From the NCBI RefSeq assembly GCF_054482525.1, contig NZ_CM137006.1: DNA of 64,000 bases. The stretch is one strand, 5' to 3'. Made by a program: the position numbers and the translations under genes. Positions 2,429 through 59,026 of the stretch are shown here, in pieces. Each line of letters opens with the position of its first letter. Position 1 is the first letter of the stretch. A model generated the notes under the pieces. The model was not told where the DNA came from. It did no database searches and was given only the letters and a program-made list of their open reading frames with translations.

Positions 2429-4366
2429 TCAGTAACGACGTCCCCATTCCGTGGCGCTCATCAATGTCGGTTTATCCCCCATGAAATAGCGGTAGTAAGC
2501 GTCATAAGCCAGCACGTTCTTCACATAACCGCGCGTCTCGGAAAACGGAATACTCTCGACGAATGCCACTGCGTCGATACGCCCGGCGCTATTGCCAAGC
2601 CAGGTTCGCACCCGCCCTGGTCCGGCGTTATAAGCTGCTGAGGAGAAAATACGGTTATTACCAAACTGCTGATAAACATATTGCAGGTAACTGGTGCCAA
2701 TGTTGATGTTCGTTTCCGGATCCAGCAATTGTCCTGGGCTGCTATAACCAGGAATAGAGAACATCTTCACCGTATGGGTCGCCGTGCCCGGCATAATCTG
2801 CATCAGGCCGCTGGCCCCTACCGGTGATTTCACTTTCGGATTCCAGGCGCTCTCCTGACGGGCAATCGCCATCGCATAGCTTTGCGGGATCTCCTTCCCA
2901 CTGGTGTAACGTTTGAAAAGATCGTTGTAAGCCAGCGGGAATCGCTCTTCCAGATGATCCCATAGCTTCCCGGCGATCGTTGCCTGAACGCTAAGATCCC
3001 ACCATTGGTTATTGAAAGCATACCGAGCAAGTTGAGCCTGCTCTGTTTTTGACTTGCTCTTCACCAGATTGGCCCACTCGCTACGCGCGGTATTATCGAG
3101 ATTCCAGTACATCAACTCGCGCACGCGCGCCATCTCCGGCCCCTGAGTCAGGGCGCTGTCAACATTCTGCGGCGCTTTATCAATCTTCAGCTCGTACTCT
3201 TCACCGATGCGTTGTGCAGCAACCATCGGGTAGAAACCTCGCTGTTGCATGAGTTGATGCAAAATCTCTTTTGCTTCAGCTTCACGTCCGCGTTCAAGCA
3301 GTAAATCCGCCTGCCAGTAACGCCATTCATCTTTCTCTTTCGCCTCCATCGGCAGACGCGCCAGCCAGGTATTCAGGCCGCGACGATCGCCGGTGCCAAG
3401 CGCCATTCGCACACGGCGTTCAATAAGCGAAGTAGATTGCGAACGCATAATGGCGTCATCACGCCATTTCGCCTGTTCGTCGGTGACATCGTTGCCCATC
3501 AAACGCCAGGCGATGATATCGCGCAGCTCCTGAATCTGATCTTCATTAAGCTGCTGCGCCTGGGCAAGCGACGGGATCATCAGCCGTGCATTTTCAGCAT
3601 CCTGCCGCGCCACACTGGCAAACGCCACCGCCGCCATTTGACGGGTAAAATCGGTCGCTCCGGTTGTACGCGCGAAGGTCAGTACCGTATTAGGGTTGTT
3701 CGCCAGTGAAATGATTGCCGAGGCGATAGTCTGGTAATCGGCAGGCATCTGCCCTGCCAGCACTGTTACCAGGCCAGTGTTACCCGCTTTCATCGCCAGA
3801 CGGATACGCTCTAAATACGCCAGCGGATCTTGTTTACCTGACGCACGCCAGACGCTAAATAACTTGTCACAGGCGTTAGGCTGGCTCTTGCCGGTTAGCC
3901 ACAGCTCTTTCGCCCCTTGCCAGGCTTCTTCACTCTGCCCGGTATTCCATTTCGCATAGTAGTAATTACATTGCGCTTCGGTAGTTCCGGGCTTTTCCGG
4001 GCTAAAGGCTAACAAGCCACGCCAGTCTTCACGCCGCGCCAGTTCATTGACGAAACGAGATTGGAGCGTGCGAGCGGGAGGAAGCGTGGGGTTAGCGCGA
4101 ACAAAGTTAGTGACCGTCACCGCCGGTTGATTCATCAGGTCATCGGTGATCTGACGGTATTCCAGGTAGGGATAAAGCGGATAATCCTTCAGTCCAGGCA
4201 TCATTTGTTCGACCACATCCATTTGTCGATTATCCCAGGCCTGCTTGATTTGGGCGTAGCGGCTACGCTGCTCATCCAGTGAGTCGGCTCGCGCCACGCT
4301 GCTGACCGTCAGCAGACAGACACCGGCAGCCAACAGCCGCCAGGTAACGTGTTTGGCTTTTTCCAC
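2429..4366 (-). CDS. slt: soluble lytic murein transglycosylase Slt70 (GTG start inferred; ORF extends to 4396)
   Basis: 655 aa ORF; signal peptide VTWRLLAAGVCLLTVSSVARA, C-terminal GH23 lysozyme-like domain (...ESAWNPKVKSPVGASGLMQIMPGTA...). Confidence 0.9.
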   Translation of the reverse strand: MEKAKHVTWRLLAAGVCLLTVSSVARADSLDEQRSRYAQIKQAWDNRQMDVVEQMMPGLKDYPLYPYLEYRQITDDLMNQPAVTVTNFVRANPTLPPARTLQSRFVNELARREDWRGLLAFSPEKPGTTEAQCNYYYAKWNTGQSEEAWQGAKELWLTGKSQPNACDKLFSVWRASGKQDPLAYLERIRLAMKAGNTGLVTVLAGQMPADYQTIASAIISLANNPNTVLTFARTTGATDFTRQMAAVAFASVARQDAENARLMIPSLAQAQQLNEDQIQELRDIIAWRLMGNDVTDEQAKWRDDAIMRSQSTSLIERRVRMALGTGDRRGLNTWLARLPMEAKEKDEWRYWQADLLLERGREAEAKEILHQLMQQRGFYPMVAAQRIGEEYELKIDKAPQNVDSALTQGPEMARVRELMYWNLDNTARSEWANLVKSKSKTEQAQLARYAFNNQWWDLSVQATIAGKLWDHLEERFPLAYNDLFKRYTSGKEIPQSYAMAIARQESAWNPKVKSPVGASGLMQIMPGTATHTVKMFSIPGYSSPGQLLDPETNINIGTSYLQYVYQQFGNNRIFSSAAYNAGPGRVRTWLGNSAGRIDAVAFVESIPFSETRGYVKNVLAYDAYYRYFMGDKPTLMSATEWGRRY

Positions 4367-4495
4367 AAGCGCATCCTCTAAGTGTAAATACATCAATGCA
4401 GCGTCATGCCGCGTAATAGATTTATGCTAACCAGTCATTGCCGTTTACGCCACGTTACGGACACTTTTTTACTTTTATACTCTAAATAATTCGAG

Positions 4496-4600
4496 TTGCA
4501 GGAAGGCGATAAGTGAGTGAGTCCCCAGGAGCTTACAGAAGTAAGTGACTGGGGTGAGCGAGCGTAAGCGCAGCACATGCAACTTGAAGTATGACGAGTA
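4496..4600 (+). repeat. copy A of a ~100-nt structured repeat in the ettA 5' leader (second copy at ~59184..59288)
   Basis: ttgcaggaaggcgataagtgagtgagtccccaggagcttacagaagtaagtgactggggtgagcgagcg... about 85% identical to the sequence upstream of btsT; nested hairpin CCCCAG/CTGGGG with CTTAC/GTAAG. Confidence 0.6.
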
Positions 4601-4701
4601 TACTGCGAGGGTGATCGACCGGCTGGGATTAGATAAGGAAACAGGCTACACTTCGCCTTTGAAAACTCATCATCACGATAAACATAGAGGCGAAGTCCAA
4701 C

Positions 4702-6369
4702 GTGGCTCAATTCGTTTATACCATGCATCGTGTCGGCAAAGTTGTTCCGCCGAAACGTCATATTTTGAAAAACATCTCTCTGAGTTTCTTCCCTGGGGCA
4801 AAAATTGGTGTCCTGGGTCTGAACGGCGCGGGTAAGTCCACCCTGCTGCGCATTATGGCGGGCATTGATAAAGACATCGAAGGCGAAGCGCGTCCGCAAC
4901 CGGATATCAAGATTGGTTATCTGCCGCAGGAACCGCAGCTGAACCCGGAACACACCGTGCGTGAGTCCATTGAAGAAGCGGTTTCTGAAGTGGTTAACGC
5001 CCTGAAACGCCTGGATGAAGTGTATGCACTGTACGCCGATCCGGATGCCGATTTTGACAAGCTGGCCGCTGAACAAGGCCGTCTGGAAGAGATCATTCAG
5101 GCTCACGACGGTCACAACCTGAACGTTCAGCTGGAGCGTGCGGCGGATGCGCTGCGTCTGCCGGACTGGGACGCGAAAATCGCTAACCTCTCCGGTGGTG
5201 AGCGTCGTCGCGTGGCGTTGTGCCGCCTGCTGCTGGAAAAACCAGACATGCTGCTGCTCGACGAACCGACCAACCACCTGGATGCCGAATCCGTGGCCTG
5301 GCTGGAACGCTTCCTGCACGACTTCGAAGGCACCGTTGTGGCGATTACCCACGACCGTTACTTCCTTGATAACGTTGCAGGCTGGATCCTCGAACTGGAC
5401 CGCGGTGAAGGTATTCCGTGGGAAGGCAACTACTCCTCCTGGCTGGAGCAGAAAGATCAGCGTCTGGCGCAGGAAGCTTCACAAGAAGCGGCGCGTCGTA
5501 AGTCGATCGAGAAAGAGCTGGAGTGGGTACGTCAGGGGACTAAAGGCCGTCAGTCGAAAGGTAAAGCACGTCTGGCACGCTTTGAAGAGCTGAACAGCAC
5601 CGAATATCAGAAACGTAACGAAACCAACGAACTGTTTATTCCACCAGGACCGCGTCTGGGCGATAAAGTGCTGGAAGTCAGCAATCTGCGTAAATCCTAT
5701 GGCGATCGTCTGCTGATTGACTCCCTGAGCTTCTCGATCCCGAAAGGAGCGATCGTCGGGATCATCGGTCCGAACGGTGCGGGTAAATCGACCCTGTTCC
5801 GTATGATCTCCGGTCAGGAACAGCCGGACAGCGGCACCATCACTCTGGGTGAAACGGTGAAACTGGCATCGGTTGATCAGTTCCGTGACTCAATGGATAA
5901 CAGCAAAACCGTTTGGGAAGAAGTTTCCGGCGGGCTGGATATCATGAAAATCGGCAACACCGAGATGCCAAGCCGCGCCTACGTTGGCCGCTTTAACTTT
6001 AAAGGGGTTGATCAGGGTAAACGCGTTGGTGAACTCTCCGGCGGTGAGCGCGGTCGTCTGCATCTGGCGAAGCTGCTGCAAGTTGGCGGCAACATGCTGC
6101 TGCTCGACGAACCAACCAACGACCTGGATATCGAAACCCTGCGCGCGCTGGAAAACGCCCTGCTGGAGTTCCCGGGCTGCGCGATGGTTATCTCGCACGA
6201 CCGTTGGTTCCTCGACCGTATCGCCACGCACATTCTGGATTACCAGGATGAAGGTAAAGTTGAGTTCTTCGAAGGTAACTTTACCGAGTACGAAGAGTAC
6301 AAGAAACGCACGCTGGGCGCAGACGCGCTGGAGCCGAAGCGTATCAAGTACAAGCGTATTGCGAAGTAA
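4702..6369 (+). CDS. ettA: energy-dependent translational throttle protein EttA (ABC-F ATPase)
   Basis: 555 aa ORF with two ABC ATPase domains (GLNGAGKST... LSGGERRR...; GPNGAGKST... LSGGERGR...). Confidence 0.93.
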   Translation: MAQFVYTMHRVGKVVPPKRHILKNISLSFFPGAKIGVLGLNGAGKSTLLRIMAGIDKDIEGEARPQPDIKIGYLPQEPQLNPEHTVRESIEEAVSEVVNALKRLDEVYALYADPDADFDKLAAEQGRLEEIIQAHDGHNLNVQLERAADALRLPDWDAKIANLSGGERRRVALCRLLLEKPDMLLLDEPTNHLDAESVAWLERFLHDFEGTVVAITHDRYFLDNVAGWILELDRGEGIPWEGNYSSWLEQKDQRLAQEASQEAARRKSIEKELEWVRQGTKGRQSKGKARLARFEELNSTEYQKRNETNELFIPPGPRLGDKVLEVSNLRKSYGDRLLIDSLSFSIPKGAIVGIIGPNGAGKSTLFRMISGQEQPDSGTITLGETVKLASVDQFRDSMDNSKTVWEEVSGGLDIMKIGNTEMPSRAYVGRFNFKGVDQGKRVGELSGGERGRLHLAKLLQVGGNMLLLDEPTNDLDIETLRALENALLEFPGCAMVISHDRWFLDRIATHILDYQDEGKVEFFEGNFTEYEEYKKRTLGADALEPKRIKYKRIAK

Positions 6370-11009: not shown

Positions 11010-11816
11010 TTATCGGGTGTGTTTGAAAGTTTTGATGGCAGAAATAAGAAGGATCACACCAAGTAAAGTCATAAGGGCTTTAAGTGGGAACAAGCCGACC
11101 ATAAGTCCACCAATTGCTGCACCAATTACTGAACCAATAACCATCCATACAAACAGTGTCCTTTCTTGCTTCAGAATCAGGAAAGCATCTGCATTTATAT
11201 AACGGGAAAAGCCAACAATCATTGTTGGCAGGCTAATCATCAGTGAAAGACTTCCGGCCAGTTTAATATCTGCCCCGAAAAGGATAACGATTGTGGGGAT
11301 AAGAAGCTCTCCGCCAGCCACTCCGAGCAATGCTGCGACTATCCCGATAAAGCCCCCTGATACCACCCCCACAATAATCATGGCAAGGCCAGGTTGAAAT
11401 AACCCGCCTGAAATACTGTGCAACGGCATCCAGGCTTCAGAGAGCATGACAAAAGACAGTAAAACAAGCAGGATCAGAATGATTCTGTCCAGCCAGATTC
11501 TGGACATCTTTATGGCACGACCTGCGGCCCACCATGCTCCAATAAGACTTCCTGCCAGCAAATTTATGACAATATCAAGATGCGCCACCAACTGATCAAA
11601 AGATATAGATTTTGTTCGGAAAATTAAAGCAATAGCCACCACGGCGAGACTCATTGCTTTGTTAAAAATGACGGCTTCCAGAGAAGGGATTTTGAAACTA
11701 CCGATCAGTACGGGAAGGCGAAATTCAGCCCCTCCGAGGCCAATCAACCCACCTAAAGCCCCTATTACCGCGCCTGAGAAAAAACCTTTACCATTCCTGT
11801 TTGAAACTGACGACAT
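11010..11816 (-). CDS. TauE/SafE (DUF81) family anion (sulfite/sulfonate-type) exporter, integral membrane
   Basis: 268 aa highly hydrophobic ORF with Gly-rich TM helices (GALGGLIGLGGAEF..., GVAGGELLIPTIVILF...); GAGAGGA RBS. Confidence 0.8.
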   Translation of the reverse strand: MSSVSNRNGKGFFSGAVIGALGGLIGLGGAEFRLPVLIGSFKIPSLEAVIFNKAMSLAVVAIALIFRTKSISFDQLVAHLDIVINLLAGSLIGAWWAAGRAIKMSRIWLDRIILILLVLLSFVMLSEAWMPLHSISGGLFQPGLAMIIVGVVSGGFIGIVAALLGVAGGELLIPTIVILFGADIKLAGSLSLMISLPTMIVGFSRYINADAFLILKQERTLFVWMVIGSVIGAAIGGLMVGLFPLKALMTLLGVILLISAIKTFKHTR

Positions 11817-25016: not shown

Positions 25017-25132
25017 CATGCCGGATACGGCCTATGGTTCGGCACAGACTTGTAGGTCTGATAAGACGCGTCAAGCGTCGCATCAGACATTGTGCGCCAA
25101 CTGCCGGATGCGGCGTGAACGCCTTGTCCGGC
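25017..25132. repeat. REP/BIME repetitive extragenic palindromes between convergent yjjW and yjjV; approximate
   Basis: gccggatacggcc..., taggtctgataagacgcgtcaagcgtcgcatcagaca, gccggatgcggcgtgaacgccttgtccggcctac. Confidence 0.8.
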
Positions 25133-25912
25133 CTACGGCACGTTAAACAACGTATATGTATTATTTAGCAACGCTTGCGCAATCTCATCCGCTGGTTCCG
25201 GACGCAACTCGCAAAGCACGTCAAACACCCGCGCGGCCTGTTCCGGGCGGTTAGGCTGCCCCTGAAAACCGTTGAGCGGCATATCCGGCGCGTCGGTTTC
25301 CAGCAACAACGATGCCAGCGGTAATTTTGCGATGACATCGCGGGTTTTACTGGCGCGTGGATAGGTGATAGTACCGCCTACGCCGATTTTGTAGCCCAGC
25401 TGTACAAACCGTTCGGCCTGTTGCAGGCTGCCGGAAAAACCATGAACCACGCCAGAGCGCGGCAAATCGTGGAGTTTAAGATGCATCGCGAGTTTGTCGT
25501 GCGTGCGTCGTGAATGCAGGATCACCGGCAGATCGTAGCGTTTCGCCAGTTTCAGTTGTTCGTCGAGTAACCACTGCTGCCTCTCAAATTGCGGATCGTC
25601 GCCGAAGAGATCCAGACCGATCTCCCCCACCGCCACCACCTTCGCCGGACGCCTTTCCAGCGCCTGCTGTAGCTGATCAAGAGACACATCGCTATGTTTT
25701 TCCAACATACCAGGATGCAAGCCCAATGCGGCATACAGCGGTTGATATTTTTCCGCTAACGCCTGCACGCGGGCAAAATTTTCCGCCTCGGTTGCCGGAA
25801 CAATGATCTTGCCTACGCCCGCTTGTGCCGCGCGTTGCAGGCTGGCCTCTTCATCGCCACTAAACGGCGGGAAATCAAAATGGCAGTGGGTGTCGATAAA
25901 ACAGCAAATCAA
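25133..25912 (-). CDS. yjjV: TatD-family metal-dependent hydrolase/DNase YjjV
   Basis: 259 aa ORF MICCFIDTHCHFDFPPF...; TatD HxH motif. Confidence 0.88.
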   Translation of the reverse strand: MICCFIDTHCHFDFPPFSGDEEASLQRAAQAGVGKIIVPATEAENFARVQALAEKYQPLYAALGLHPGMLEKHSDVSLDQLQQALERRPAKVVAVGEIGLDLFGDDPQFERQQWLLDEQLKLAKRYDLPVILHSRRTHDKLAMHLKLHDLPRSGVVHGFSGSLQQAERFVQLGYKIGVGGTITYPRASKTRDVIAKLPLASLLLETDAPDMPLNGFQGQPNRPEQAARVFDVLCELRPEPADEIAQALLNNTYTLFNVP

Positions 25913-32923: not shown

Positions 32924-33010
32924 GCGAAGGTGGCGGAATTGGTAGACGCGCTAGCTTCAGGTGTTAGTGTCCTTACGGACGTGGGGGTTCAAGTCCCCCC
33001 CCTCGCACCA
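32924..33010 (+). tRNA. leuQ: tRNA-Leu (anticodon CAG), 87 nt incl. CCA
   Basis: gcgaaggtggcggaattggtagacgcgctagcttcaggtgttagtgtccttacggacgtgggggttcaagtcccccccctcgcacca; D-arm, CAG anticodon loop (cttCAGgt), long variable arm, T-arm GGTTCAAGTCC. Confidence 0.93.
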
Positions 33011-33038
33011 AAAACCACGTTGATATTGCTCGCACTGG

Positions 33039-33125
33039 GCGAAGGTGGCGGAATTGGTAGACGCGCTAGCTTCAGGTGTTAGTGTTCTTACGGACGTGGG
33101 GGTTCAAGTCCCCCCCCTCGCACCA
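33039..33125 (+). tRNA. leuP: tRNA-Leu (CAG), 87 nt; differs from flanking copies by one base in the variable arm (gtgtTctt vs gtgtCctt)
   Basis: second tandem copy after a 28-nt spacer. Confidence 0.93.
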
Positions 33126-33159
33126 AACGAGGCGATATCAAAAAAAGTAAGATGACTGT

Positions 33160-33246
33160 GCGAAGGTGGCGGAATTGGTAGACGCGCTAGCTTCAGGTGT
33201 TAGTGTCCTTACGGACGTGGGGGTTCAAGTCCCCCCCCTCGCACCA
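33160..33246 (+). tRNA. leuV: tRNA-Leu (CAG), 87 nt
   Basis: third tandem copy after a 34-nt spacer; identical to first copy. Confidence 0.93.
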
Positions 33247-47668: not shown

Positions 47669-47786
47669 GGTTTCTCTTTCCTGTGGACCGATGCAAGATT
47701 TTCGGCCTGGAAAGCAAAAACTTTATGAAAAGGTGTAACCCGCCATCCATGGAAAAACCAGGCGCTGGTTATCAGATATTAAAAAG

Positions 47787-48233
47787 TTATTCATTATCGC
47801 CCGGGATGTCTTCTTGTCGGGAATTACCCAGAGCAATAAATTCCTCTAACAGATGGGTTAACTGTTGCATTTTCTCGGCAGTAAACTGAGCTTCAATCTG
47901 CCGATAGGCTTCTTCAATCTGTGTCTGAGCGCGGTTATACAGGGCCTGCCCCTCTTTGGTCAGCGAGATATAGAGCTTCCGCTGATCATTGATCGGCTTT
48001 AATCGCAACACTAAACCGTCGCGTTCCATCCGCGTGAGGATCCCGGTCAGGCTTGGGCGCAAAATGCAGGCGCGATACGCCAGATCGTGAAAATCCATTG
48101 ATGGGCTTTCCGCCAGAATACGCACGATGCGCCACTGTTGCTCTGTCAAATTATGCCGTTTAACGATTGGGCGAAAATAACTCATCGCCGCTTCTCGCGC
48201 CTGGAGCAACGCAATGGTTAGTGAGTCGTGCAT
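47787..48233 (-). CDS. hpaR: MarR-family repressor of the hpa meta-cleavage operon
   Basis: ORF 47787..48314; MHDSLTIALLQAREAAMSYFRPIVKRHNLTEQQWRIVRILAESPSMDFHDLAYRACI from codon 28. Confidence 0.85.
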   Translation of the reverse strand: MHDSLTIALLQAREAAMSYFRPIVKRHNLTEQQWRIVRILAESPSMDFHDLAYRACILRPSLTGILTRMERDGLVLRLKPINDQRKLYISLTKEGQALYNRAQTQIEEAYRQIEAQFTAEKMQQLTHLLEEFIALGNSRQEDIPGDNE

Positions 48234-48455
48234 TATCTTTCCCCTGAAAAATTCAAAATCATTAATATAGAAACAGTTAATCATCACGTTACCGGGACTG
48301 CGCTGCCCCTGCAATTCTTCATTTTATCAAAATTGAGCATGTTTTGTTAACTTACTGATATTTAATATTTTATTATCTTTAAATGTAAATAGTTTGTTAA
48401 TTAGATCACATTTACATCACTTACTTTTGCCAAACTACGCAATCGGGAATAAAAG

Positions 48456-48479
48456 TAATCATTAACATATTAATGATTA
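48456..48479. promoter_or_regulatory. candidate HpaR operator: near-perfect palindrome TAATCATTAACATATTAATGATTA overlapping the hpaG promoter; approximate
   Basis: 24-bp palindrome ~25 bp upstream of hpaG start in the hpaR/hpaG divergent region. Confidence 0.55.
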
Positions 48480-48504
48480 AGATGATCGAATCCGAGGAGT
48501 GGTA

Positions 48505-49794
48505 ATGAAAGGCACTATCTTCGCCGTAGCGTTGAACCATCGCAGCCAACTTGATGCATGGCAGGAAGCGTTCCAGCAATCCCCCTACAAAGCCCCGCCT
48601 AAAACTGCGGTCTGGTTTATTAAACCGCGCAATACGGTGATTGGTTGCGGTGAACCGATTCCCTTTCCACAGGGTGAAAAGGTACTGAGCGGTGCGACTG
48701 TTGCGCTGATTGTGGGAAAAACGGCGACGAAAGTACGTGAAGAAGATGCAGCAGAGTACATCGCCGGATATGCGCTGGCTAACGACGTCAGCCTGCCGGA
48801 AGAGAGCTTTTACCGCCCGGCAATCAAAGCAAAATGTCGTGATGGATTCTGCCCCATTGGCGAAACCGTGGCTCTCAGCAATGTCGATAATCTGACCATC
48901 TATACCGAGATCAACGGGCGTCCTGCCGATCACTGGAACACCGCCGATTTACAACGTAATGCCGCGCAGTTGCTGAGCGCTCTGAGCGAATTTGCCACGC
49001 TGAATCCAGGCGATGCCATTCTGCTCGGCACGCCACAGGCGCGCGTGGAAATACAGCCAGGCGATCGCGTTCGTGTTCTCGCTGAAGGTTTCCCGCCACT
49101 GGAAAATCCGGTAATGGACGAACGTGAAGTGACCACGCGCAAGAGCTTCCCAACGCAGCCACACCCGCACGGCACGCTGTTTGCCCTCGGCCTGAACTAC
49201 GCCGACCACGCCAGCGAACTGGAATTTAAGCCACCGGAAGAACCGCTGGTGTTCCTGAAAGCGCCGAATACCCTCACTGGCGATAACCAGACCTCCGTGC
49301 GCCCGAACAATATTGAATATATGCACTACGAAGCGGAGCTGGTGGTGGTGATTGGCAAGCAGGCGCGTAACGTCAGCGAAGCCGATGCTATGGATTATGT
49401 CGCGGGCTACACCGTGTGTAACGACTACGCCATTCGCGACTATCTGGAAAACTACTACCGCCCTAACCTGCGGGTAAAAAGCCGCGACGGACTGACGCCG
49501 ATGCTTTCAACCATCGTGCCGAAAGAGGCGATCCCGGACCCGCATAATCTGACCCTTCGCACCTTCGTCAACGGCGAGTTACGCCAGAAAGGCACCACCG
49601 CCGATCTGATCTTCAGCGTGCCCTTCCTGATCGCCTACTTAAGCGAATTTATGACCCTGAATCCGGGCGACATGATCGCCACCGGCACACCAAAAGGCTT
49701 ATCTGACGTGGTGCCTGGCGATGAAGTAGTAGTGGAAGTAGAAGGCGTGGGCCGCCTGGTGAACCGAATTGTGAGTGAGGAAACAGCGAAATGA
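48505..49794 (+). CDS. hpaG: bifunctional 5-carboxymethyl-2-oxo-hex-3-ene-1,7-dioate decarboxylase / isomerase (two FAH-like domains)
   Basis: ORF 48499..49794; MKGTIFAVALNHRSQLDAWQEAF...; GAGGAG RBS. Confidence 0.9.
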   Translation: MKGTIFAVALNHRSQLDAWQEAFQQSPYKAPPKTAVWFIKPRNTVIGCGEPIPFPQGEKVLSGATVALIVGKTATKVREEDAAEYIAGYALANDVSLPEESFYRPAIKAKCRDGFCPIGETVALSNVDNLTIYTEINGRPADHWNTADLQRNAAQLLSALSEFATLNPGDAILLGTPQARVEIQPGDRVRVLAEGFPPLENPVMDEREVTTRKSFPTQPHPHGTLFALGLNYADHASELEFKPPEEPLVFLKAPNTLTGDNQTSVRPNNIEYMHYEAELVVVIGKQARNVSEADAMDYVAGYTVCNDYAIRDYLENYYRPNLRVKSRDGLTPMLSTIVPKEAIPDPHNLTLRTFVNGELRQKGTTADLIFSVPFLIAYLSEFMTLNPGDMIATGTPKGLSDVVPGDEVVVEVEGVGRLVNRIVSEETAK

Positions 49795-51257
49795 AAAAAG
49801 TAAATCATTGGATCAACGGCAAAAATGTTGCAGGTAACGACTACTTCCAGACCACCAATCCGGCAACGGGTGAAGTGCTGGCGGATGTGGCCTCTGGCGG
49901 TGAAGCGGAGATCAATCAGGCGGTAGCGGCAGCGAAAGAGGCGTTCCCGAAATGGGCCAATCTGCCGATGAAAGAGCGTGCGCGCCTGATGCGCCGTCTG
50001 GGCGATCTGATCGACCAGAACGTGCCTGAGATCGCCGCGATGGAAACCGCGGACACGGGCCTGCCAATCCATCAGACCAAAAATGTGTTGATCCCACGCG
50101 CTTCTCACAACTTTGAATTTTTCGCGGAAGTCTGCCAGCAGATGAACGGCAAGACCTATCCGGTTGACGACAAGATGCTCAACTACACGCTGGTGCAACC
50201 GGTAGGCGTTTGTGCGCTGGTATCGCCGTGGAACGTGCCGTTTATGACCGCCACATGGAAGGTCGCGCCGTGTCTGGCGCTGGGCAATACCGCGGTGTTG
50301 AAAATGTCGGAACTCTCCCCGCTGACCGCTGACCGCCTGGGTGAGCTGGCGCTGGAAGCCGGTATTCCGGCGGGCGTGCTGAACGTGGTACAGGGCTACG
50401 GCGCAACCGCAGGCGATGCGCTGGTTCGTCATCATGACGTACGTGCCGTGTCGTTCACCGGCGGTACGGCCACCGGGCGCAACATCATGAAAAACGCCGG
50501 GCTGAAAAAATACTCCATGGAACTGGGCGGTAAATCGCCGGTGCTGATTTTTGAAGATGCCGATATTGAACGCGCGCTGGACGCTGCCCTGTTCACCATC
50601 TTCTCGATCAACGGCGAGCGCTGCACCGCCGGTTCGCGCATCTTTATTCAGCAAAGCATCTACCCGGAATTCGTTAAACGCTTTGCCGAACGCGCCAACC
50701 GTCTGCGCGTGGGCGATCCGAACGATCCGAATACCCAGGTTGGGGCGCTTATCAGCCAGCAACACTGGGAAAAAGTCTCCGGCTATATTCGTCTCGGCAT
50801 TGAAGAAGGCGCAACCCTGCTGGCGGGCGGTCCGGATAAACCGTCCGACCTGCCTGCGCACCTGAAAGGCGGCAACTTCCTGCGCCCAACGGTGCTGGCT
50901 GACGTTGATAACCGTATGCGCGTCGCCCAGGAAGAGATTTTCGGGCCGGTCGCCTGTCTGCTGCCGTTTAAAGACGAAGCCGAAGGCTTACGTCTGGCAA
51001 ACGACGTGGAGTACGGCCTCGCGTCGTACATCTGGACACAGGATGTCAGCAAAGTGTTACGCCTGGCGCGTGGCATTGAAGCAGGCATGGTGTTCGTCAA
51101 CACCCAGAACGTGCGTGACCTGCGCCAGCCATTTGGCGGCGTAAAAGCCTCCGGCACCGGGCGTGAAGGCGGTGAGTACAGCTTCGAAGTGTTCGCGGAA
51201 ATGAAGAACGTCTGCATTTCCATGGGCGACCATCCAATTCCGAAATGGGGAGTCTGA
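49791..51257 (+). CDS. hpaE: 5-carboxymethyl-2-hydroxymuconate semialdehyde dehydrogenase
   Basis: 488 aa aldehyde dehydrogenase; ATGA start/stop overlap with hpaG. Confidence 0.9.
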   Translation: MKKVNHWINGKNVAGNDYFQTTNPATGEVLADVASGGEAEINQAVAAAKEAFPKWANLPMKERARLMRRLGDLIDQNVPEIAAMETADTGLPIHQTKNVLIPRASHNFEFFAEVCQQMNGKTYPVDDKMLNYTLVQPVGVCALVSPWNVPFMTATWKVAPCLALGNTAVLKMSELSPLTADRLGELALEAGIPAGVLNVVQGYGATAGDALVRHHDVRAVSFTGGTATGRNIMKNAGLKKYSMELGGKSPVLIFEDADIERALDAALFTIFSINGERCTAGSRIFIQQSIYPEFVKRFAERANRLRVGDPNDPNTQVGALISQQHWEKVSGYIRLGIEEGATLLAGGPDKPSDLPAHLKGGNFLRPTVLADVDNRMRVAQEEIFGPVACLLPFKDEAEGLRLANDVEYGLASYIWTQDVSKVLRLARGIEAGMVFVNTQNVRDLRQPFGGVKASGTGREGGEYSFEVFAEMKNVCISMGDHPIPKWGV

Positions 51258-51258
51258 T

Positions 51259-52110
51259 ATGGGTAAGTTAGCGTTAGCCGCCAAGATCACGCACGTACCG
51301 TCGATGTATCTCTCTGAACTGCCAGGGAAAAACCACGGTTGCCGCCAGGGTGCGATTGACGGGCATAAAGAGATCAGCAAGCGTTGCCGGGAAATGGGCG
51401 TCGATACCATTATCGTTTTCGATACCCACTGGCTGGTCAACAGTGCTTATCACATCAACTGTGCAGACCATTTTGAAGGCGTCTACACCAGCAACGAGCT
51501 GCCGCATTTTATCCGCGATATGACCTACAACTACGAGGGCAACCCGGAGTTGGGGCAGCTTATTGCCGATGAAGCCTTAAAACTCGGCGTGCGGGCAAAA
51601 GCGCACAATATTCCCAGCCTGAAACTGGAATACGGCACGCTGGTGCCAATGCGCTACATGAATGAAGACAAGCACTTCAAAGTGGTCTCCATTTCGGCTT
51701 TCTGCACGGTTCACGATTTTGCCGACAGCCGCAAGCTTGGCGAAGCGATTGTGAAAGCGATCGAACAGTACGACGGCACCGTGGCGGTCCTTGCCAGCGG
51801 TTCGTTATCGCACCGCTTTATTGACGATCAGCGTGCGGAAGAAGGGATGAACAGCTACACCCGCGAGTTCGACCGCCAGATGGACGAGCGCGTGGTGAAG
51901 CTGTGGCGCGAAGGCCAGTTCAAAGAGTTCTGCAATATGCTGCCGGAGTACGCCGACTACTGCTACGGCGAAGGCAATATGCACGACACGGTGATGCTGC
52001 TGGGGATGCTCGGCTGGGATAAATACGACGGCAAGGTGGAGTTTATTACCGAGCTGTTCCCAAGCTCTGGCACTGGTCAGGTTAACGCTGTTTTCCCGCT
52101 TCCCGCGTAA
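51259..52110 (+). CDS. hpaD: 3,4-dihydroxyphenylacetate (homoprotocatechuate) 2,3-dioxygenase
   Basis: 283 aa ORF MGKLALAAKITHVPSMYLSELPGKNHGCRQGAIDGHKE... Confidence 0.9.
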   Translation: MGKLALAAKITHVPSMYLSELPGKNHGCRQGAIDGHKEISKRCREMGVDTIIVFDTHWLVNSAYHINCADHFEGVYTSNELPHFIRDMTYNYEGNPELGQLIADEALKLGVRAKAHNIPSLKLEYGTLVPMRYMNEDKHFKVVSISAFCTVHDFADSRKLGEAIVKAIEQYDGTVAVLASGSLSHRFIDDQRAEEGMNSYTREFDRQMDERVVKLWREGQFKEFCNMLPEYADYCYGEGNMHDTVMLLGMLGWDKYDGKVEFITELFPSSGTGQVNAVFPLPA

Positions 52111-52119
52111 GGAACCACC

Positions 52120-52500
52120 ATGCCGCACTTTATCGTGGAATGTACTGAAAATATTCGTCAAGAAGCCCGCTTACCTGAGCTGTTTGCCAGTGTTAACACC
52201 GCACTGGCGGCGACGGGGATTTTTCCGCTTGGGGGAATACGTAGCCGGGCGCACTGGATCGATACCTGGCAAATGGCCGATGGCAAGCACGATTACGCCT
52301 TTGTGCATATGACGCTAAAAATCGGCAGCGGGCGCAGTCTGGAAAGCCGTCAGGAAGTAGGTGAAATGCTGTTTGATCTGATTAAAACGCACTTCGCCTC
52401 ACTGATGGAGAGCCGTTACCTGGCGCTTTCATTTGAGATTGCAGAGCTGCACCCGACGTTGAATTTCAAACAGAACAACGTACACGCGTTGTTTAAATAA
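52120..52500 (+). CDS. hpaF: 5-carboxymethyl-2-hydroxymuconate delta-isomerase
   Basis: 126 aa [36 protein letters not shown]... Confidence 0.9.
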
Positions 52501-52567
52501 ATTTGCACCAGCTTCCAGGCCGGATGATAAGGCGCAGCCGCATCCGGCAATGCCACAGGATATCGCC

Positions 52568-53371
52568 ATGTTCGATAAACACACCCACACCCTGATCGCC
52601 CAGCGTCTGGATCAGGCAGAAAAACAGCGCGAACAGATCCGCGCGATCTCGCTGGATTACCCGGAGATCACCATCGAAGACGCTTACGCGGTGCAGCGTG
52701 AATGGGTTCGACTGAAAATCGCCGAAGGTCGCACGCTGAAAGGCCACAAAATCGGCCTGACCTCGAAAGCGATGCAGGCCAGCTCACAAATCAGCGAGCC
52801 GGATTACGGTGCCCTGCTGGATGACATGTTCTTCCACGATGGCAGCGATATCCCGACCGATCGCTTTATCGTGCCGCGCATTGAAGTGGAGCTGGCTTTC
52901 GTGCTGGCAAAACCGCTGCGTGGGCCAAACTGCACGCTGTTCGACGTTTACAACGCCACGGACTATGTGATCCCGGCGCTGGAGCTGATCGACGCTCGCT
53001 GCCACAACATCGATCCGGAAACCCAGCGCCCGCGTAAAGTGTTCGACACCATTTCTGATAACGCCGCCAATGCCGGGGTGATCCTCGGTGGTCGTCCGAT
53101 CAAACCTGACGAGCTGGATCTGCGTTGGATCTCCGCCCTCATGTATCGCAATGGCGTGATTGAAGAAACCGGCGTCGCCGCTGGTGTGCTGAATCATCCG
53201 GCAAACGGCGTGGCCTGGCTGGCGAACAAACTCGCACCGTATGACGTACAACTGGAAGCCGGGCAAATCATTCTCGGCGGTTCGTTCACCCGCCCGGTTC
53301 CGGCGCGTAAGGGCGACACCTTCCACGTCGATTACGGCAACATGGGTTCCATTAGCTGCCGCTTTGTTTAA
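52568..53371 (+). CDS. hpaH: 2-oxo-hept-4-ene-1,7-dioate hydratase
   Basis: ORF 52550..53371; [28 protein letters not shown]... from codon 7. Confidence 0.88.
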
Positions 53372-53381
53372 GGAGAGAACG

Positions 53382-54170
53382 ATGGAAAACAGTTTTAAAG
53401 CGGCGCTGAAAGCAGGCCGCCCGCAGATCGGATTATGGCTGGGGCTAAGTAGCAGCTACAGCGCAGAGTTACTGGCCGGAGCAGGATTCGACTGGTTATT
53501 GATCGACGGTGAGCACGCGCCGAATAACGTGCAAACCGTGCTCACCCAACTACAGGCGATTGCGCCCTATCCCAGCCAGCCGGTAGTACGTCCGTCGTGG
53601 AACGATCCGGTGCAAATCAAACAACTGCTGGACGTCGGCACACAAACCTTACTGGTGCCGATGGTACAAAACGCCGACGAAGCCCGTGAAGCGGTACGCG
53701 CCACCCGTTATCCCCCCGCCGGTATTCGTGGTGTGGGCAGTGCGCTGGCCCGCGCCTCGCGCTGGAATCGTATTCCTGATTACCTGCAAAAAGCCAACGA
53801 TCAAATGTGCGTGCTGGTGCAGATCGAAACGCGTGAGGCAATGAAGAACCTACCGCAGATTCTGGACGTGGAAGGGGTAGACGGCGTGTTTATCGGCCCG
53901 GCGGATCTGAGCGCCGATATGGGTTATGCCGGTAATCCGCAGCACCCGGAAGTGCAGGCCGCCATTGAACAGGCGATCGTGCAAATCCGTGAAGCGGGCA
54001 AAGCGCCGGGGATCCTGATCGCCAATGAGCAACTGGCAAAACGCTACCTGGAACTGGGCGCGCTATTTGTCGCCGTCGGCGTTGACACCACCCTGCTCGC
54101 CCGCGCCGCCGAAGCGCTGGCAGCACGGTTTGGCGCGCAGGCTACAGCGATTAAGCCCGGCGTGTATTAA
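53382..54170 (+). CDS. hpaI: 4-hydroxy-2-oxo-heptane-1,7-dioate aldolase (HpcH/HpaI family)
   Basis: in-frame part of ORF 53241..54170; [48 protein letters not shown]; GGAGAG RBS. Confidence 0.88.
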
Positions 54171-54250
54171 TGCCGGATGCGCTGCGCTTATCCGGCCTAC
54201 ACTCGCACCAAACCGTAGGCCGGATAAGGCGTTTACGCCGCATCCGCCAT
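54171..54250. repeat. REP/BIME palindromic repeats after hpaI; approximate
   Basis: tgccggatgcgctgcgcttatccggcctac...gtaggccggataaggcgtttacgccgcatccg. Confidence 0.8.
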
Positions 54251-54293
54251 AAACCTTGTCGTACCCTACAAAAATCCCATTAGAGGAAGAAAA

Positions 54294-55670
54294 ATGAGCG
54301 ACACCTCACCTGCCATACCGGAAAGTATCGATCCGGCAAATCAGCATAAAACGCTGACTGCCGGACAACAGGCGGTTATTAAGAAGCTGTTTCGCCGCCT
54401 GATCGTCTTTCTGTTCGTGCTGTTTATCTTCTCGTTCCTTGATCGCATCAACATCGGCTTTGCCGGGCTCACGATGGGACGCGACCTCGGTCTGAGCGCC
54501 ACCATGTTTGGCCTCGCCACCACCCTGTTCTACGCCGCTTATGTCATCTTCGGCATTCCCAGCAACATTATGCTGAGTATTGTCGGTGCGCGGCGCTGGA
54601 TCGCCACCATCATGGTGCTTTGGGGCATCGCCTCTACGGTCACCATGTTTGCCACTGGCCCCACCAGCTTGTACGTACTGCGCATACTGGTTGGCATTAC
54701 CGAAGCCGGCTTTCTGCCTGGCATTCTGCTGTATTTAACCTTCTGGTTTCCGGCCTATTTCCGCGCCCGTGCCAACGCCTTGTTTATGGTAGCAATGCCG
54801 GTAACGACAGCGTTGGGATCGATCGTTTCCGGCTACATTTTGTCGCTGGATGGCGTAATGGCATTAAAAGGCTGGCAGTGGCTGTTTTTGCTGGAAGGCT
54901 TCCCGTCGGTATTACTCGGCGTCATGGTGTGGTTCTGGCTTGATGACTCACCGGACAAAGCTAAGTGGCTGACGAAAGAAGACAAAAAATGCCTGCAAGA
55001 GATGATGGATAACGATCGTCTGACGCTGGTTCAGCCAGAGGGAGCCATCAGCCACCACGCCATGCAACAACGCAGCATGTGGCGGGAGATCTTCACTCCG
55101 GTGGTGATGATGTATACCCTGGCGTATTTCTGCCTGACCAACACACTTAGTGCAATCAGCATCTGGACACCGCAGATCCTACAAAGCTTTAATCAGGGTA
55201 GCAGTAATATCACCATCGGCCTGCTGGCCGCCGTACCGCAGATTTGTACCATTCTCGGGATGATCTACTGGAGCCGTCACTCAGATCGCCGCCAGGAACG
55301 AAGGCATCACACCGCCCTTCCTTATTTGTTCGCTGCCGCTGGTTGGTTACTGGCTTCGGCAACTGATCACAACATGATCCAGATGCTGGGGATCATTATG
55401 GCTTCGACCGGATCATTCAGCGCAATGGCGATTTTCTGGACAACACCGGATCAGTCCATCAGCCTGCGGGCACGAGCGATCGGTATTGCGGTGATCAACG
55501 CCACTGGCAACATTGGTTCAGCATTAAGTCCGTTTATGATCGGCTGGTTGAAAGATCTGACCGGCAGCTTTAACAGTGGATTGTGGTTTGTTGCCGCGCT
55601 GCTGGTGATTGGTGCGGGGATTATCTGGGCGATTCCAATGCAGTCCTCCCGTCCGCGAGCGACCCCGTAA
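54294..55670 (+). CDS. hpaX: MFS 4-hydroxyphenylacetate permease
   Basis: 458 aa 12-TM MFS ORF. Confidence 0.88.
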   Translation: MSDTSPAIPESIDPANQHKTLTAGQQAVIKKLFRRLIVFLFVLFIFSFLDRINIGFAGLTMGRDLGLSATMFGLATTLFYAAYVIFGIPSNIMLSIVGARRWIATIMVLWGIASTVTMFATGPTSLYVLRILVGITEAGFLPGILLYLTFWFPAYFRARANALFMVAMPVTTALGSIVSGYILSLDGVMALKGWQWLFLLEGFPSVLLGVMVWFWLDDSPDKAKWLTKEDKKCLQEMMDNDRLTLVQPEGAISHHAMQQRSMWREIFTPVVMMYTLAYFCLTNTLSAISIWTPQILQSFNQGSSNITIGLLAAVPQICTILGMIYWSRHSDRRQERRHHTALPYLFAAAGWLLASATDHNMIQMLGIIMASTGSFSAMAIFWTTPDQSISLRARAIGIAVINATGNIGSALSPFMIGWLKDLTGSFNSGLWFVAALLVIGAGIIWAIPMQSSRPRATP

Positions 55671-55679
55671 GGAACGACG

Positions 55680-56570
55680 ATGTGTGACCGTCAGATTGCC
55701 AATATTGATATCAGCAAAGAGTACGATGAAAGCCTGGGTACTGACGATGTGCATTATCAGTCGTTCGCCCGCATGGCGGCATTTTTTGGCCGCCATATGC
55801 TGCCACATCGCCACGAACAGTACTTTCAGATGCATTTCCTCAATAGCGGACAGATTGAGCTACAGCTTGACGATCATCGCTACTCGGTGGAAGCGCCCCT
55901 GTTTGTCCTGACGCCACCGTCAGTACCTCATGCGTTTATTACGGAGTCTGACGCCGACGGTCATGTGTTGACGGTACGGGAAGATCTGATCTGGCCCCTG
56001 CTGGAAGTTCTTTATCCGGGCACTCGGGAAACCTTCGGCCTGCCGGGGATTTGCCTGTCACTGGCAGATAAACCCGACGAACTGGCGGCGCTGGAACACT
56101 ATTGGCAACTGATAGAGCGGGAATCGGTAGAACAACTGCCTGGACGGGAACACACCCTGACGCTACTGGCACAGGCAGTGTTCACCCTACTGCTGCGTAA
56201 CGCAAAACTCGACGACCATGCCGCCAGCGGGATGCGCGGAGAATTAAAACTGTTCCAACGTTTTCATATGCTGATTGAAAGCCATTTTCACCAGCACTGG
56301 ACAGTACCGGATTACGCTAACGAACTGCATATCACCGAATCACGACTCACGGACATCTGCCGTCGCTTTGCCAACCGTCCGCCAAAACGGTTGATTTTCG
56401 ACAGGCAGCTGCGAGAAGCCAAACGGCTGCTGCTGTTTTCTGATAACGCCGTGAACAATATTGCCTGGCAACTCGGTTTTAAGGATCCGGCTTATTTTGC
56501 CCGCTTTTTTAATCGCTTAGTCGGTTGCTCGCCCAGTGCTTATCGTGCCAAAAAAGTACCTGTGACGTGA
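55680..56570 (+). CDS. hpaA: AraC/XylS-family activator of hpaBC
   Basis: 296 aa ORF; cupin-like N-terminal domain and C-terminal AraC HTH (...AYFARFFNRLVGCSPSAYR). Confidence 0.88.
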   Translation: MCDRQIANIDISKEYDESLGTDDVHYQSFARMAAFFGRHMLPHRHEQYFQMHFLNSGQIELQLDDHRYSVEAPLFVLTPPSVPHAFITESDADGHVLTVREDLIWPLLEVLYPGTRETFGLPGICLSLADKPDELAALEHYWQLIERESVEQLPGREHTLTLLAQAVFTLLLRNAKLDDHAASGMRGELKLFQRFHMLIESHFHQHWTVPDYANELHITESRLTDICRRFANRPPKRLIFDRQLREAKRLLLFSDNAVNNIAWQLGFKDPAYFARFFNRLVGCSPSAYRAKKVPVT

Positions 56571-56820
56571 AAATCCCTTAGCCTTAACGGGAAACCAGGC
56601 ACCACCTGCTATTCCCCTTTCTCCGCCTGGAGCAAGGGGATTTAGTAACGTTAAAAATCGTTAAAAGCGACCTCGATCACAAAACCGTACCCGACATGAA
56701 AAGTACCAGCCATTGTCCCAAAAGTGTCTTCCCGTAATCGCCCCTGCAAGCTTCAATTGAATAACAAAAACAACACACAAAATTAACAATCGTATTCCGA
56801 TTAATACTGTAGAGGTCGAC

Positions 56821-58383
56821 ATGAAACCAGAAGATTTCCGCGCCAGTACCCAACGTCCGTTCACCGGGGAAGAGTATCTGAAAAGCCTGCAGGATGGTCG
56901 AGAGATCTATATCTATGGCGAGCGAGTGAAAGACGTCACCACTCATCCGGCATTTCGTAATGCGGCAGCGTCTGTTGCCCAACTGTACGACGCGCTACAC
57001 AAACCGGAGATGCAGGACTCTCTGTGTTGGAACACCGACACCGGCAGCGGCGGCTATACCCATAAATTCTTCCGCGTGGCGAAAAGTGCCGACGACCTGC
57101 GCCAGCAACGCGACGCCATCGCTGAGTGGTCACGCCTGAGCTATGGCTGGATGGGCCGTACCCCAGACTACAAAGCTGCTTTCGGTTGCGCACTGGGCGC
57201 GAATCCGGGCTTTTACGGTCAGTTCGAGCAGAACGCCCGTAACTGGTACACCCGTATTCAGGAAACTGGCCTCTACTTTAACCACGCGATTGTTAACCCA
57301 CCGATCGATCGTCATTTGCCGACCGATAAAGTAAAAGACGTTTACATCAAGCTGGAAAAAGAGACTGACGCCGGGATTATCGTCAGCGGTGCGAAAGTGG
57401 TTGCCACCAACTCGGCGCTGACTCACTACAACATGATTGGCTTCGGCTCGGCACAAGTGATGGGCGAAAACCCGGACTTCGCACTGATGTTCGTTGCGCC
57501 AATGGATGCCGATGGCGTGAAATTAATCTCCCGCGCCTCTTATGAGATGGTCGCGGGTGCTACCGGCTCGCCGTACGACTACCCGCTCTCCAGCCGCTTC
57601 GATGAGAACGATGCGATTCTGGTGATGGATAACGTGCTGATCCCATGGGAAAACGTGCTGATCTACCGCGATTTTGATCGCTGCCGTCGCTGGACGATGG
57701 AAGGCGGTTTCGCCCGTATGTATCCGCTGCAAGCCTGTGTGCGCCTGGCAGTGAAATTAGACTTCATTACGGCACTGCTGAAAAAATCACTCGAATGTAC
57801 CGGCACCCTGGAGTTCCGTGGCGTGCAGGCCGATCTCGGTGAAGTGGTGGCGTGGCGCAACACCTTCTGGGCATTGAGTGACTCGATGTGTTCAGAAGCA
57901 ACGCCGTGGGTCAACGGGGCTTATTTACCGGATCATGCCGCACTGCAAACCTATCGCGTACTGGCACCAATGGCCTACGCGAAGATCAAAAACATTATCG
58001 AACGCAACGTTACCAGTGGCCTGATCTATCTCCCTTCCAGTGCCCGTGACCTGAACAATCCGCAGATCGACCAGTATCTGGCGAAGTATGTGCGCGGTTC
58101 GAATGGTATGGATCACGTCCAGCGCATCAAGATCCTCAAACTGATGTGGGATGCCATTGGCAGCGAATTTGGTGGTCGTCACGAACTGTATGAAATCAAC
58201 TACTCCGGTAGCCAGGATGAGATTCGCCTGCAGTGTCTGCGCCAGGCACAAAGCTCCGGCAATATGGACAAGATGATGGCGATGGTTGATCGCTGCCTGT
58301 CGGAATACGACCAGAACGGCTGGACTGTGCCGCACCTGCACAACAACGACGATATCAACATGCTGGATAAGCTGCTGAAATAA
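56821..58383 (+). CDS. hpaB: 4-hydroxyphenylacetate 3-monooxygenase, oxygenase component
   Basis: 520 aa ORF MKPEDFRASTQRPFTGEEYLKSLQDGREIYIYGERVKDVTTHPAFRNAA... Confidence 0.92.
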   Translation: MKPEDFRASTQRPFTGEEYLKSLQDGREIYIYGERVKDVTTHPAFRNAAASVAQLYDALHKPEMQDSLCWNTDTGSGGYTHKFFRVAKSADDLRQQRDAIAEWSRLSYGWMGRTPDYKAAFGCALGANPGFYGQFEQNARNWYTRIQETGLYFNHAIVNPPIDRHLPTDKVKDVYIKLEKETDAGIIVSGAKVVATNSALTHYNMIGFGSAQVMGENPDFALMFVAPMDADGVKLISRASYEMVAGATGSPYDYPLSSRFDENDAILVMDNVLIPWENVLIYRDFDRCRRWTMEGGFARMYPLQACVRLAVKLDFITALLKKSLECTGTLEFRGVQADLGEVVAWRNTFWALSDSMCSEATPWVNGAYLPDHAALQTYRVLAPMAYAKIKNIIERNVTSGLIYLPSSARDLNNPQIDQYLAKYVRGSNGMDHVQRIKILKLMWDAIGSEFGGRHELYEINYSGSQDEIRLQCLRQAQSSGNMDKMMAMVDRCLSEYDQNGWTVPHLHNNDDINMLDKLLK

Positions 58384-58400
58384 CGCAGCAGGAGGTTAAG

Positions 58401-58913
58401 ATGCAATTAGATGAACAACGCCTGCGCTTTCGTGACGCAATGGCCAGCCTGTCGGCAGCGGTAAATATTATCACCACCGAGGGCAACGCCGGGCAATGCG
58501 GGATTACGGCAACGGCTGTCTGCTCGGTCACGGATACACCACCGTCGCTGATGGTGTGCATTAACGCCAACAGTGCGATGAACCCGGTTTTTCAGGGCAA
58601 CGGTAAGTTGTGCGTCAACGTCCTCAACCATGAGCAGGAACTGATGGCACGCCACTTCGCGGGCATGACAGGCATGGCGATGGAAGAGCGTTTTAGCCTC
58701 TCATGCTGGCAAAAAGGTCCGCTGGCGCAGCCGGTGCTAAAAGGTTCGCTGGCCAGTCTTGAAGGTGAGATCCGCGATGTGCAGGCAATTGGCACACATC
58801 TGGTGTATCTGGTGGAGATTAAAAACATCATCCTCAGTGCAGAAGGTCACGGACTTATCTACTTTAAACGCCGTTTCCATCCGGTGATGCTGGAAATGGA
58901 AGCTGCGATTTAA
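58401..58913 (+). CDS. hpaC: 4-hydroxyphenylacetate 3-monooxygenase, flavin reductase component
   Basis: 170 aa ORF MQLDEQRLRFRDAMASLSAAVNIITTEGNAGQCGITATAVCSVTDTPPSLMVCIN...; GGAGG RBS. Confidence 0.9.
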   Translation: MQLDEQRLRFRDAMASLSAAVNIITTEGNAGQCGITATAVCSVTDTPPSLMVCINANSAMNPVFQGNGKLCVNVLNHEQELMARHFAGMTGMAMEERFSLSCWQKGPLAQPVLKGSLASLEGEIRDVQAIGTHLVYLVEIKNIILSAEGHGLIYFKRRFHPVMLEMEAAI

Positions 58914-58920
58914 GCTCCAG

Positions 58921-58952
58921 CCCCTTCACGTATTCGTCGAAGGGGCATTTTT
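58921..58952 (+). terminator. rho-independent terminator of hpaBC (CCCCTTC-loop-GAAGGGG then T-tract); approximate
   Basis: ccccttcacgtattcgtcgaaggggcattttta directly after hpaC stop. Confidence 0.75.
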
Positions 58953-58954
58953 AT

Positions 58955-58970
58955 TGTGATCTCAATCACA
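58955..58970. promoter_or_regulatory. CRP (cAMP receptor protein) consensus site TGTGA-N6-TCACA upstream of btsT; approximate
   Basis: tgtgatctcaatcaca, perfect match to both CRP half-sites. Confidence 0.7.
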
Positions 58971-58998
58971 TATCCACCCGATGAATAATTCTTGCCCA

Positions 58999-59026
58999 AC
59001 CGCTCACCGCCATTCCTGACCGCTTA
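58999..59026. promoter_or_regulatory. direct repeat ACCGCTCA-N12-ACCGCTTA, candidate LytTR response-regulator (BtsR/YehT) binding site in the btsT promoter; approximate
   Basis: two 8-bp direct repeats at the spacing expected for LytTR regulators. Confidence 0.6.

Follow-up and report, generated by a model that had tools for sequence, protein, structure and literature searches.

The two similar segments upstream of ettA and btsT are both copies of ERIC, the enterobacterial repetitive intergenic consensus, which is also called IRU or RU-1. The stretch of DNA analysed here (64,000 nt, hereafter the window) is from E. coli, and it is almost certain that, taken as a whole, the likeness reflects two ERIC copies, that is, the same mobile repeat lying beside two unrelated genes. 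ettA and btsT would share sequence because this repeat landed independently next to both, with no common regulator involved. The element type is already known and the shared sequence is ordinary; as most E. coli strains are devoid of ERIC at these two sites, it is not a regulator dedicated to ettA and btsT. ERIC, known since 1990-91, underlies ERIC-PCR typing, and the sources on it include Sharples & Lloyd 1990, Hulton et al. 1991, De Gregorio et al. 2005 and Wilson & Sharp 2006.

Two full-length ERIC copies in the window

A sequence-only reading of the window had pointed to two similar plus-strand segments, and pairwise alignment bears this out: 59 of the 70 core bases (84.3%) are identical between positions 4496-4565 and 59184-59253, and in both segments the core is followed, as had been noticed, by a common tail, GACGAGTA (ACGAGTA). 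The offset between the two segments is constant (54,688 nt). The true units are longer than the coordinates first given to them. They extend on the plus strand from 4476 to 4602 (copy 1, in the divergent sltY-ettA intergenic region) and from 59164 to 59290 (copy 2, the more degenerate one), each being full-length with 127 bp, and at either end of both units the identity drops into the flanks. The two copies are 77% identical over 105 nt and 73% identical over the full 127 nt, and the ORF list places both in intergenic DNA. Exactly two matches to a 35-nt core pattern are found in the window, where 100 dinucleotide-preserving shuffles of it lead one to expect 0, and a covariance-model scan of the window returned no third copy, even a degenerate one, at E <= 1. 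The scores that this model gives to the two window copies were left out as evidence, because both copies are in its training alignment.

Copy 1 is assigned to ERIC from its consensus identity and its absence at orthologous loci, and copy 2 from its consensus identity and its pattern of presence and absence. Each carries the central conserved inverted repeat that holds the ERIC-PCR primer sites, at 4517-4560 in copy 1 and at 59205-59248 in copy 2 (plus strand). Of the ERIC-PCR primers ERIC1R and ERIC2, ERIC2 matches 4539-4560 in copy 1 with 0 mismatches and copy 2 with 3 mismatches; ERIC1R has 2 mismatches in each copy, its site in copy 1 being 4517-4538 on the minus strand. Delihas 2007 (PMC2759123 Table 1a) prints the 127-nt E. 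coli ERIC/RU-1 consensus together with the Salmonella copy SeRU-1, and both window copies align over 127 nt without a gap to the reverse complements of these sequences. The ettA copy shares 85.0% of its bases with the E. coli consensus and 89.0% with S. enterica SeRU-1; the corresponding values for the btsT copy are 74.8% and 76.4%.

The repeat is not confined to these two places. With the ettA copy as query, blastn found 49,083 similar places; they are spread over 5,425 of the 5,426 complete E. coli genomes, and the median count in a genome is 10 (range 2-19). The sequence-only reading had proposed a count of copies, and other genera carry the repeat as well: in a core-pattern scan that covered one genome per species, the matches listed include Yersinia, Citrobacter, Enterobacter, Rahnella, Superficieibacter and E. 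albertii. A family alignment was made of the two window copies and 74 distinct full-length copies from other genera (n=76), and the ends of these aligned copies are mostly TATAC...GTATA. Published descriptions give ERIC a length of 127 bp, terminal inverted repeats, 5'-TA-3' termini and a TA target-site duplication (PMC2229807), and describe its copy number as variable, with extra copies in non-K-12 E. coli strains (PMC10969869).

Both window copies resemble this family in their 127-bp length, in the central inverted repeat with its primer sites, in their intergenic position and in their long imperfect hairpin. The element is moreover multi-copy, dispersed over the Enterobacterales and strain-variable in its presence, its termini are of the TATAC...GTATA type, and the ettA copy is flanked by a TA target duplication. 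Nothing essential sets the two copies apart from ERIC; the btsT copy, with about 75% identity to the consensus and with mutated termini, is a degenerate member. The sequence-only reading had left the choice between a shared cis-regulatory element and a small mobile repeat, and had named membership in a longer known repeat as the outcome that refutes the former. The similarity is part of such a repeat, which by this measure counts against the shared regulatory element, and the primer sites and the gap-free consensus alignment identify the mobile repeat as an ERIC/IRU copy in both places.

ERIC is a MITE-like, non-autonomous imperfect palindrome that inserts at a TA and duplicates it. In this respect it is similar to the TA-inserting MITEs Correia/NEMIS of Neisseria and RUP of pneumococcus, which are likewise small and non-autonomous, carry terminal inverted repeats and duplicate TA, and whose sequences are unrelated to that of ERIC. 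For RUP there is a candidate mobilising transposase, IS630-Spn1; for ERIC no such enzyme is known. Correia differs by its own promoter and IHF motifs and by RNase III cleavage. All these elements form hairpins once transcribed, and the expression of neighbouring genes can be altered by them (PMC2229807, PMC10969869).

Three other features of the window were noted. Rfam places naRNA4 (RF02564, nucleoid-associated RNA) at 25055-25133 on the minus strand with 75.7 bits. The REP-like sequence around it (25025-25137) and a second one at 54167-54250 match several repeated sites in E. albertii loci, and three tandem tRNA-Leu(CAG) genes lie at 32924-33246 on the plus strand.

Insertion between sltY and ettA and polymorphism upstream of btsT

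Copy 1 lies between two divergent genes. The ettA coding sequence, with a GTG start, occupies 4702-6369 on the plus strand (ORF list and RefSeq annotation of identical loci), and sltY, encoding the soluble lytic transglycosylase, occupies 2429-4366 on the minus strand (RefSeq annotation of orthologous loci); the left end of the copy is 110 nt upstream of the sltY start codon. When 5,426 complete E. coli genomes were queried with 601 bp spanning the sltY-ettA intergenic region, the copy was present in only 125 of them. The locus measures 476 bp in most of the others (125 bp shorter) and 472 bp in some (129 bp shorter). The element had been called conserved, and at ettA it is not, since 97.7% of the complete E. 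coli genomes are without it, K-12 included.

Filled and empty sites could be aligned to the base. K-12 and O157 carry the empty site TTT[TA]CTGCG with a single TA; the empty strain W224N has kept this TA and is missing four further bases just downstream. In the window the filled site reads TTT[TA]TACTC...GAGTA[TA]CTGCG, an exact TA duplication with its left copy at 4476-4477 and its right copy at 4601-4602. The net insertion is thus 125 bp, which together with the pre-existing TA makes up the 127-bp unit. We also constructed a synthetic empty haplotype of the window, by removing the element and keeping 200 nt on each side. IAI39, CE10 and further genomes match this haplotype at all 401 nt in a single uninterrupted alignment (100% identity), and in about 510 genomes the empty ettA allele is at least 99% identical to it. 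In the light of this identical empty haplotype, the ettA copy is apparently a clean and recent insertion, as judged from the alignments; that it is instead the remnant of repeated precise excisions is much less probable. In the blastn search of the 5,426 E. coli genomes, those devoid of the ettA copy had no donor copy that reached 95% identity, their best other copies having 90-95%.

The situation at btsT is different. The btsT coding sequence, annotated from the start MDTKK..., occupies 59306-61456 on the plus strand (RefSeq annotation in a 99.8%-identical genome, ORF list), and copy 2 stops 15 nt short of the annotated ATG (59306). Of the 5,426 complete E. coli genomes, 2,062 (about 38%) carry it, and here again the description as conserved fails, as 62% of these genomes, including K-12 MG1655, do not have it. 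E. albertii carries the copy at the orthologous site (locus L030) with identical junctions; there 2,448 bp of the btsT region are 97.4% identical to the window, compared to 87% for the neighbouring region. The termini of the copy are AT...AA instead of TA...TA, filled and empty alleles differ in length by 123 bp and not by 125 bp, and about 20 bp beside the junction differ between them. For these reasons a simple TA-duplicating insertion is not demonstrable at this site, and the btsT copy looks older and more degenerate than the ettA copy.

The right flanks of the two window copies, CTGCGAGGGT and ATGCCAGGTT, are alike, and a shared target-flank preference was considered. It was rejected as a chance resemblance, as the 76 ERIC copies have no common flank motif; their flanks have only TA and A/T richness in common.

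The surroundings of btsT are variable in themselves. An hpa (4-hydroxyphenylacetate degradation) cluster of about 11 kb lies upstream of btsT, between tsr and btsT (window 47700-59000), and is missing at this position in K-12 and E. albertii; the neighbour gene of btsT varies among E. coli strains, being tsr, a hypothetical protein gene or a gene for an FAD/NAD(P)-binding oxidoreductase. Since E. albertii has the ERIC without hpa, there is no strict linkage between this cluster and the ERIC-filled state of btsT. Directly after the last hpa gene, at 58913-58955, there is a terminator-like GC-rich hairpin followed by a T-run (CCCCTTCacgtattcgtcGAAGGGGcattttta), which a simple terminator scan did not report.

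The hairpin of the ERIC family and its relatives

Transcribed from the plus strand, each window copy folds into one long hairpin, of -54.1 kcal/mol (z = -7.9) for the ettA copy and -61.6 kcal/mol (z = -10.1) for the btsT copy; the nested hairpin described from the sequence is thus real on both plus strands. The minus-strand folds are clearly weaker, with -39.0 kcal/mol for the ettA copy and -40.4 kcal/mol for the btsT copy. From the 76 aligned copies RNAalifold again derives a single long hairpin; it has 32 pairs, and compensatory double changes occur in 23 of them. Standard pairs fill 95.3% of the cells, compared to 29-42% when the 3' partners are slid by 1-3 columns, and none of 500 shuffles of this alignment reaches the observed pairing values. 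The six central pairs are invariant across the 76 copies, which is a consequence of having collected the copies by that very pattern.

Outside this pattern-fixed core the cells hold 171 G.U and 19 A.C combinations. This excess of G.U over A.C means better pairing on the sense strand of the two genes, ettA and btsT, where 94% of the cells are paired, than on the opposite strand, where 86.5% are. The asymmetry suggests a constraint acting on a transcribed strand, the 76 copies being non-independent events. At columns 53/76 the ettA copy has A-U and the btsT copy G.A. This is the single outer-stem position at which the sequence-only reading had seen no covariation, rightly so; five or more further pairs in the long outer helix differ between the two window copies in a compensatory manner (for example C-G to U-A and A-U to G-C). 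From the position without covariation that reading had called the RNA structure tentative; the structure is in fact better supported than was thought. The hairpin is a property of the ERIC repeat family, and not of ettA and btsT in particular.

While the stems covary, the unpaired motifs AAGGCG and CAACGC and the central core GGAGCUUAC...GUAAGUGAC are kept. These conserved unpaired motifs, together with the roughly 9:1 ratio of G.U to A.C, could mean that transcribed ERIC is recognised by a specific partner.

A search of Rfam, which had been proposed as a check, assigned no family to either copy at gathering thresholds and gave only a sub-threshold match. In E-value mode RF02818 (V_AS5) matches both copies over its full length, at window positions 4475-4598 and 59168-59286, with 36.3 and 30.7 bits. 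Membership in V_AS5 was rejected, as these scores are far below the 96 bits that are its gathering score. The resemblance is nevertheless extended: V_AS5, a Vibrio antisense RNA, forms a hairpin of about 129 nt whose outer arms are similar (AACUUGAAGUUGCAGG ... CCUGCAGCUUCAAGU); the alignment covers the full model. It differs by its central core and by scoring 36 and 31 bits where 96 are asked for. As judged from the sequences, this suggests that V_AS5 is a Vibrio branch of the ERIC repeat family.

A covariance model derived from the ERICs of enterobacteria also picked up ERIC-like elements in distant sources, most of them as full-model matches: 69 and 41 bits in Cognaticolwellia, 54, 42 and 36 bits in a MAG labelled Bacteroidales, 33 bits in a Proteobacteria MAG, and 32 bits, from a partial match, in a SAR86 MAG (sites L041:4996-5288, L074:672-798, L075:9857-9981 and 11444-11570, L040:2298-2401 and L076:7505-7592). 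In Cognaticolwellia, the SAR86 MAG and the MAG labelled Bacteroidales, AAGGCG, CAACGC and the core are kept and the stems covary. Many chimeric copies with an ERIC core were seen in Yersinia and soil-MAG loci (L088, L100, L103, L107, L091, L087, L111, L113, L120 and L122), in which the left arm is swapped for CAACCGAAGGTTGGCCTCCGGTGAGAG... or CAGCGCTTGCGCTGGCCCG..., and/or the right arm for GACAAATCTGC...GATTTGAACGCTG... These are probably the internal insertions known for ERIC, which are reportedly treated in Sharp 1997.

Placement relative to transcripts and possible effects on expression

In MG1655 ettA has a single transcript start, at 4630563, 41 nt before the start codon (SMRT-Cappable-seq, PMC6131387 supplementary file 3). 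Positions 4603-4720 of the window align gap-free with K-12, and through this alignment the start, with its 41-nt leader, transfers to 4661 on the plus strand, downstream of the right end of the ERIC. Relative to it the ettA copy spans -59 to -185. If the K-12 start holds for the window strain, the copy would therefore lie upstream of the ettA promoter and outside the leader.

For btsT, a direct repeat (ACCGCTCA-N12-ACCGCTTA, 58999-59026, plus strand) that is conserved in K-12 is presumably the BtsR (YehT) binding site of the promoter, which is reportedly described in Kraxenberger et al. 2012. This presumed site would place the btsT promoter upstream of the ERIC, which lies between the repeat and the ribosome-binding site; 6 nt separate the base of the hairpin from the AGG of the Shine-Dalgarno sequence, and 15 nt separate it from the ATG at 59306. 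Neither copy overlaps a Shine-Dalgarno sequence. Consensus promoter and terminator scans around both copies returned no sites, and so are of no help in placing the promoters. A btsT transcription start appears neither in the SMRT-Cappable-seq operon table (PMC6131387) nor in the Cappable-seq supplement, so that it is from position that we infer a leader location for the btsT copy, which is probably in the btsT 5' untranslated region. Of the two 5' leaders to which the element had been ascribed, that of btsT thus probably stands, and that of ettA falls, the copy ending 59 nt upstream of the K-12 start.

What such insertions do to their neighbours can be sketched from their positions. At ettA, the insertion would shift the sequence upstream of -59 by 125 bp. 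At btsT, the ERIC would be carried in the leader as a self-contained hairpin and might be nearly neutral; lying 6 nt upstream of the Shine-Dalgarno sequence, so stable a hairpin could also alter mRNA stability or translation. Compensatory changes keep the hairpin family-wide, in favour of the strand that is sense for both genes. Any expression effect would be a by-product of insertion.

Other explanations were weighed against that of two ERIC copies landed beside unrelated genes. It is extremely improbable that the shared sequence is a dedicated cis-regulatory RNA motif, such as a CsrA-binding leader, co-regulating ettA and btsT. Each copy is oriented like its downstream gene, has a stable RNA fold and contains GGA triplets, and CsrA has been reported to repress BtsT synthesis (PMC7730263); as in the CsrA-binding leaders of cstA and glgC, GGA triplets stand in a structured 5' region of a gene for a carbon-starvation-family transporter. 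However, a dedicated element would hardly be absent from most genomes at both loci, lie upstream of the mapped transcription start at ettA and recur about 10 times per genome beside unrelated genes. The repression was moreover described in MG1655, a K-12 strain that has neither copy, so that the CsrA control of btsT exists in an ERIC-free strain, and unlike the cstA and glgC leaders the ERIC is not conserved at the locus. The GGA triplets had been read as loops that could bind CsrA; in the family consensus fold the one at element positions 26-28 is mostly base-paired and the one at 53-55 is in an internal loop, the apical loops of the folds being AGAA and AACA, and, contrary to those leaders, there is no overlap with the Shine-Dalgarno sequence. 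An overlap with CsrA CLIP data had been put forward as a check. K-12 CLIP-seq and ribosome profiling (PMC5694010 Supplementary Data 2) show no peak for ettA or yjiY; in the csrA mutant ettA is unchanged, whereas RNA and ribosome footprints of yjiY go up. All of this is uninformative for the element itself, since K-12 is without both copies. With its GGA triplets outside the apical loops, a btsT control that is present without the element and no CLIP peaks in K-12, the CsrA idea found no support.

Likewise very improbable is a reading of the copies as small-RNA genes in their own right, akin to the Vibrio AS5 RNA. The full-length RF02818 match of both copies speaks for it, as does the detection of AS5 RNA by northern blot in V. 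cholerae (PMC2665243). Nevertheless, the scores are far under the gathering score, the consensus scans gave no promoter-like or terminator-like sites around either copy, and the Vibrio family is most simply read as a Vibrio relative of ERIC. A further possibility adds to the two-copy explanation rather than replacing it, namely that the ERIC in the btsT leader has been co-opted, giving altered mRNA stability or translation and a different response in pyruvate uptake. We consider it rather unlikely. It is favoured by the location of the copy between the presumed BtsR-dependent promoter and the ribosome-binding site, with its hairpin so near the Shine-Dalgarno sequence, by the stability of the sense hairpin (-61.6 compared to -40.4 kcal/mol for the antisense one), and by the filled allele being at 38% in E. 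coli and also found in E. albertii, where the btsT region is 97.4% identical and a neighbouring region 87%. In Yersinia, ERIC has been credited with orientation-dependent effects on mRNA level involving RNase E, as summarised in PMC2229807 and PMC10969869. But 62% of the E. coli genomes manage without the copy, the RNA on either side may be structurally unaffected by a hairpin that is self-contained, and the Yersinia effect, in these summaries, bears on genes upstream of the element, whereas here there is none upstream in the same transcript.

In conclusion, annotations of ettA and btsT should not list the shared sequence as their regulatory motif or as a riboswitch-like leader, nor should co-regulation of these genes be inferred from it. 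Rfam is without an ERIC family despite the strong covariation of the structure. Studies of BtsS/BtsR-BtsT regulation in non-K-12 strains should keep in mind a common ERIC polymorphism in the predicted 5' UTR, and the btsT-leader copy may be a strain-specific post-transcriptional modulator of pyruvate uptake. A joint reading, in which ERIC is more than a passive palindromic MITE and combines a partner at the RNA level, modulation of btsT and recent mobility, appears quite unlikely to us. On the other hand, the sltY-ettA copy is unusually clean and offers a natural test case for ERIC mobility and promoter-context effects. Being set in a haplotype that is otherwise unchanged, it would show recent movement of ERIC in E. 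coli by way of a transposase.
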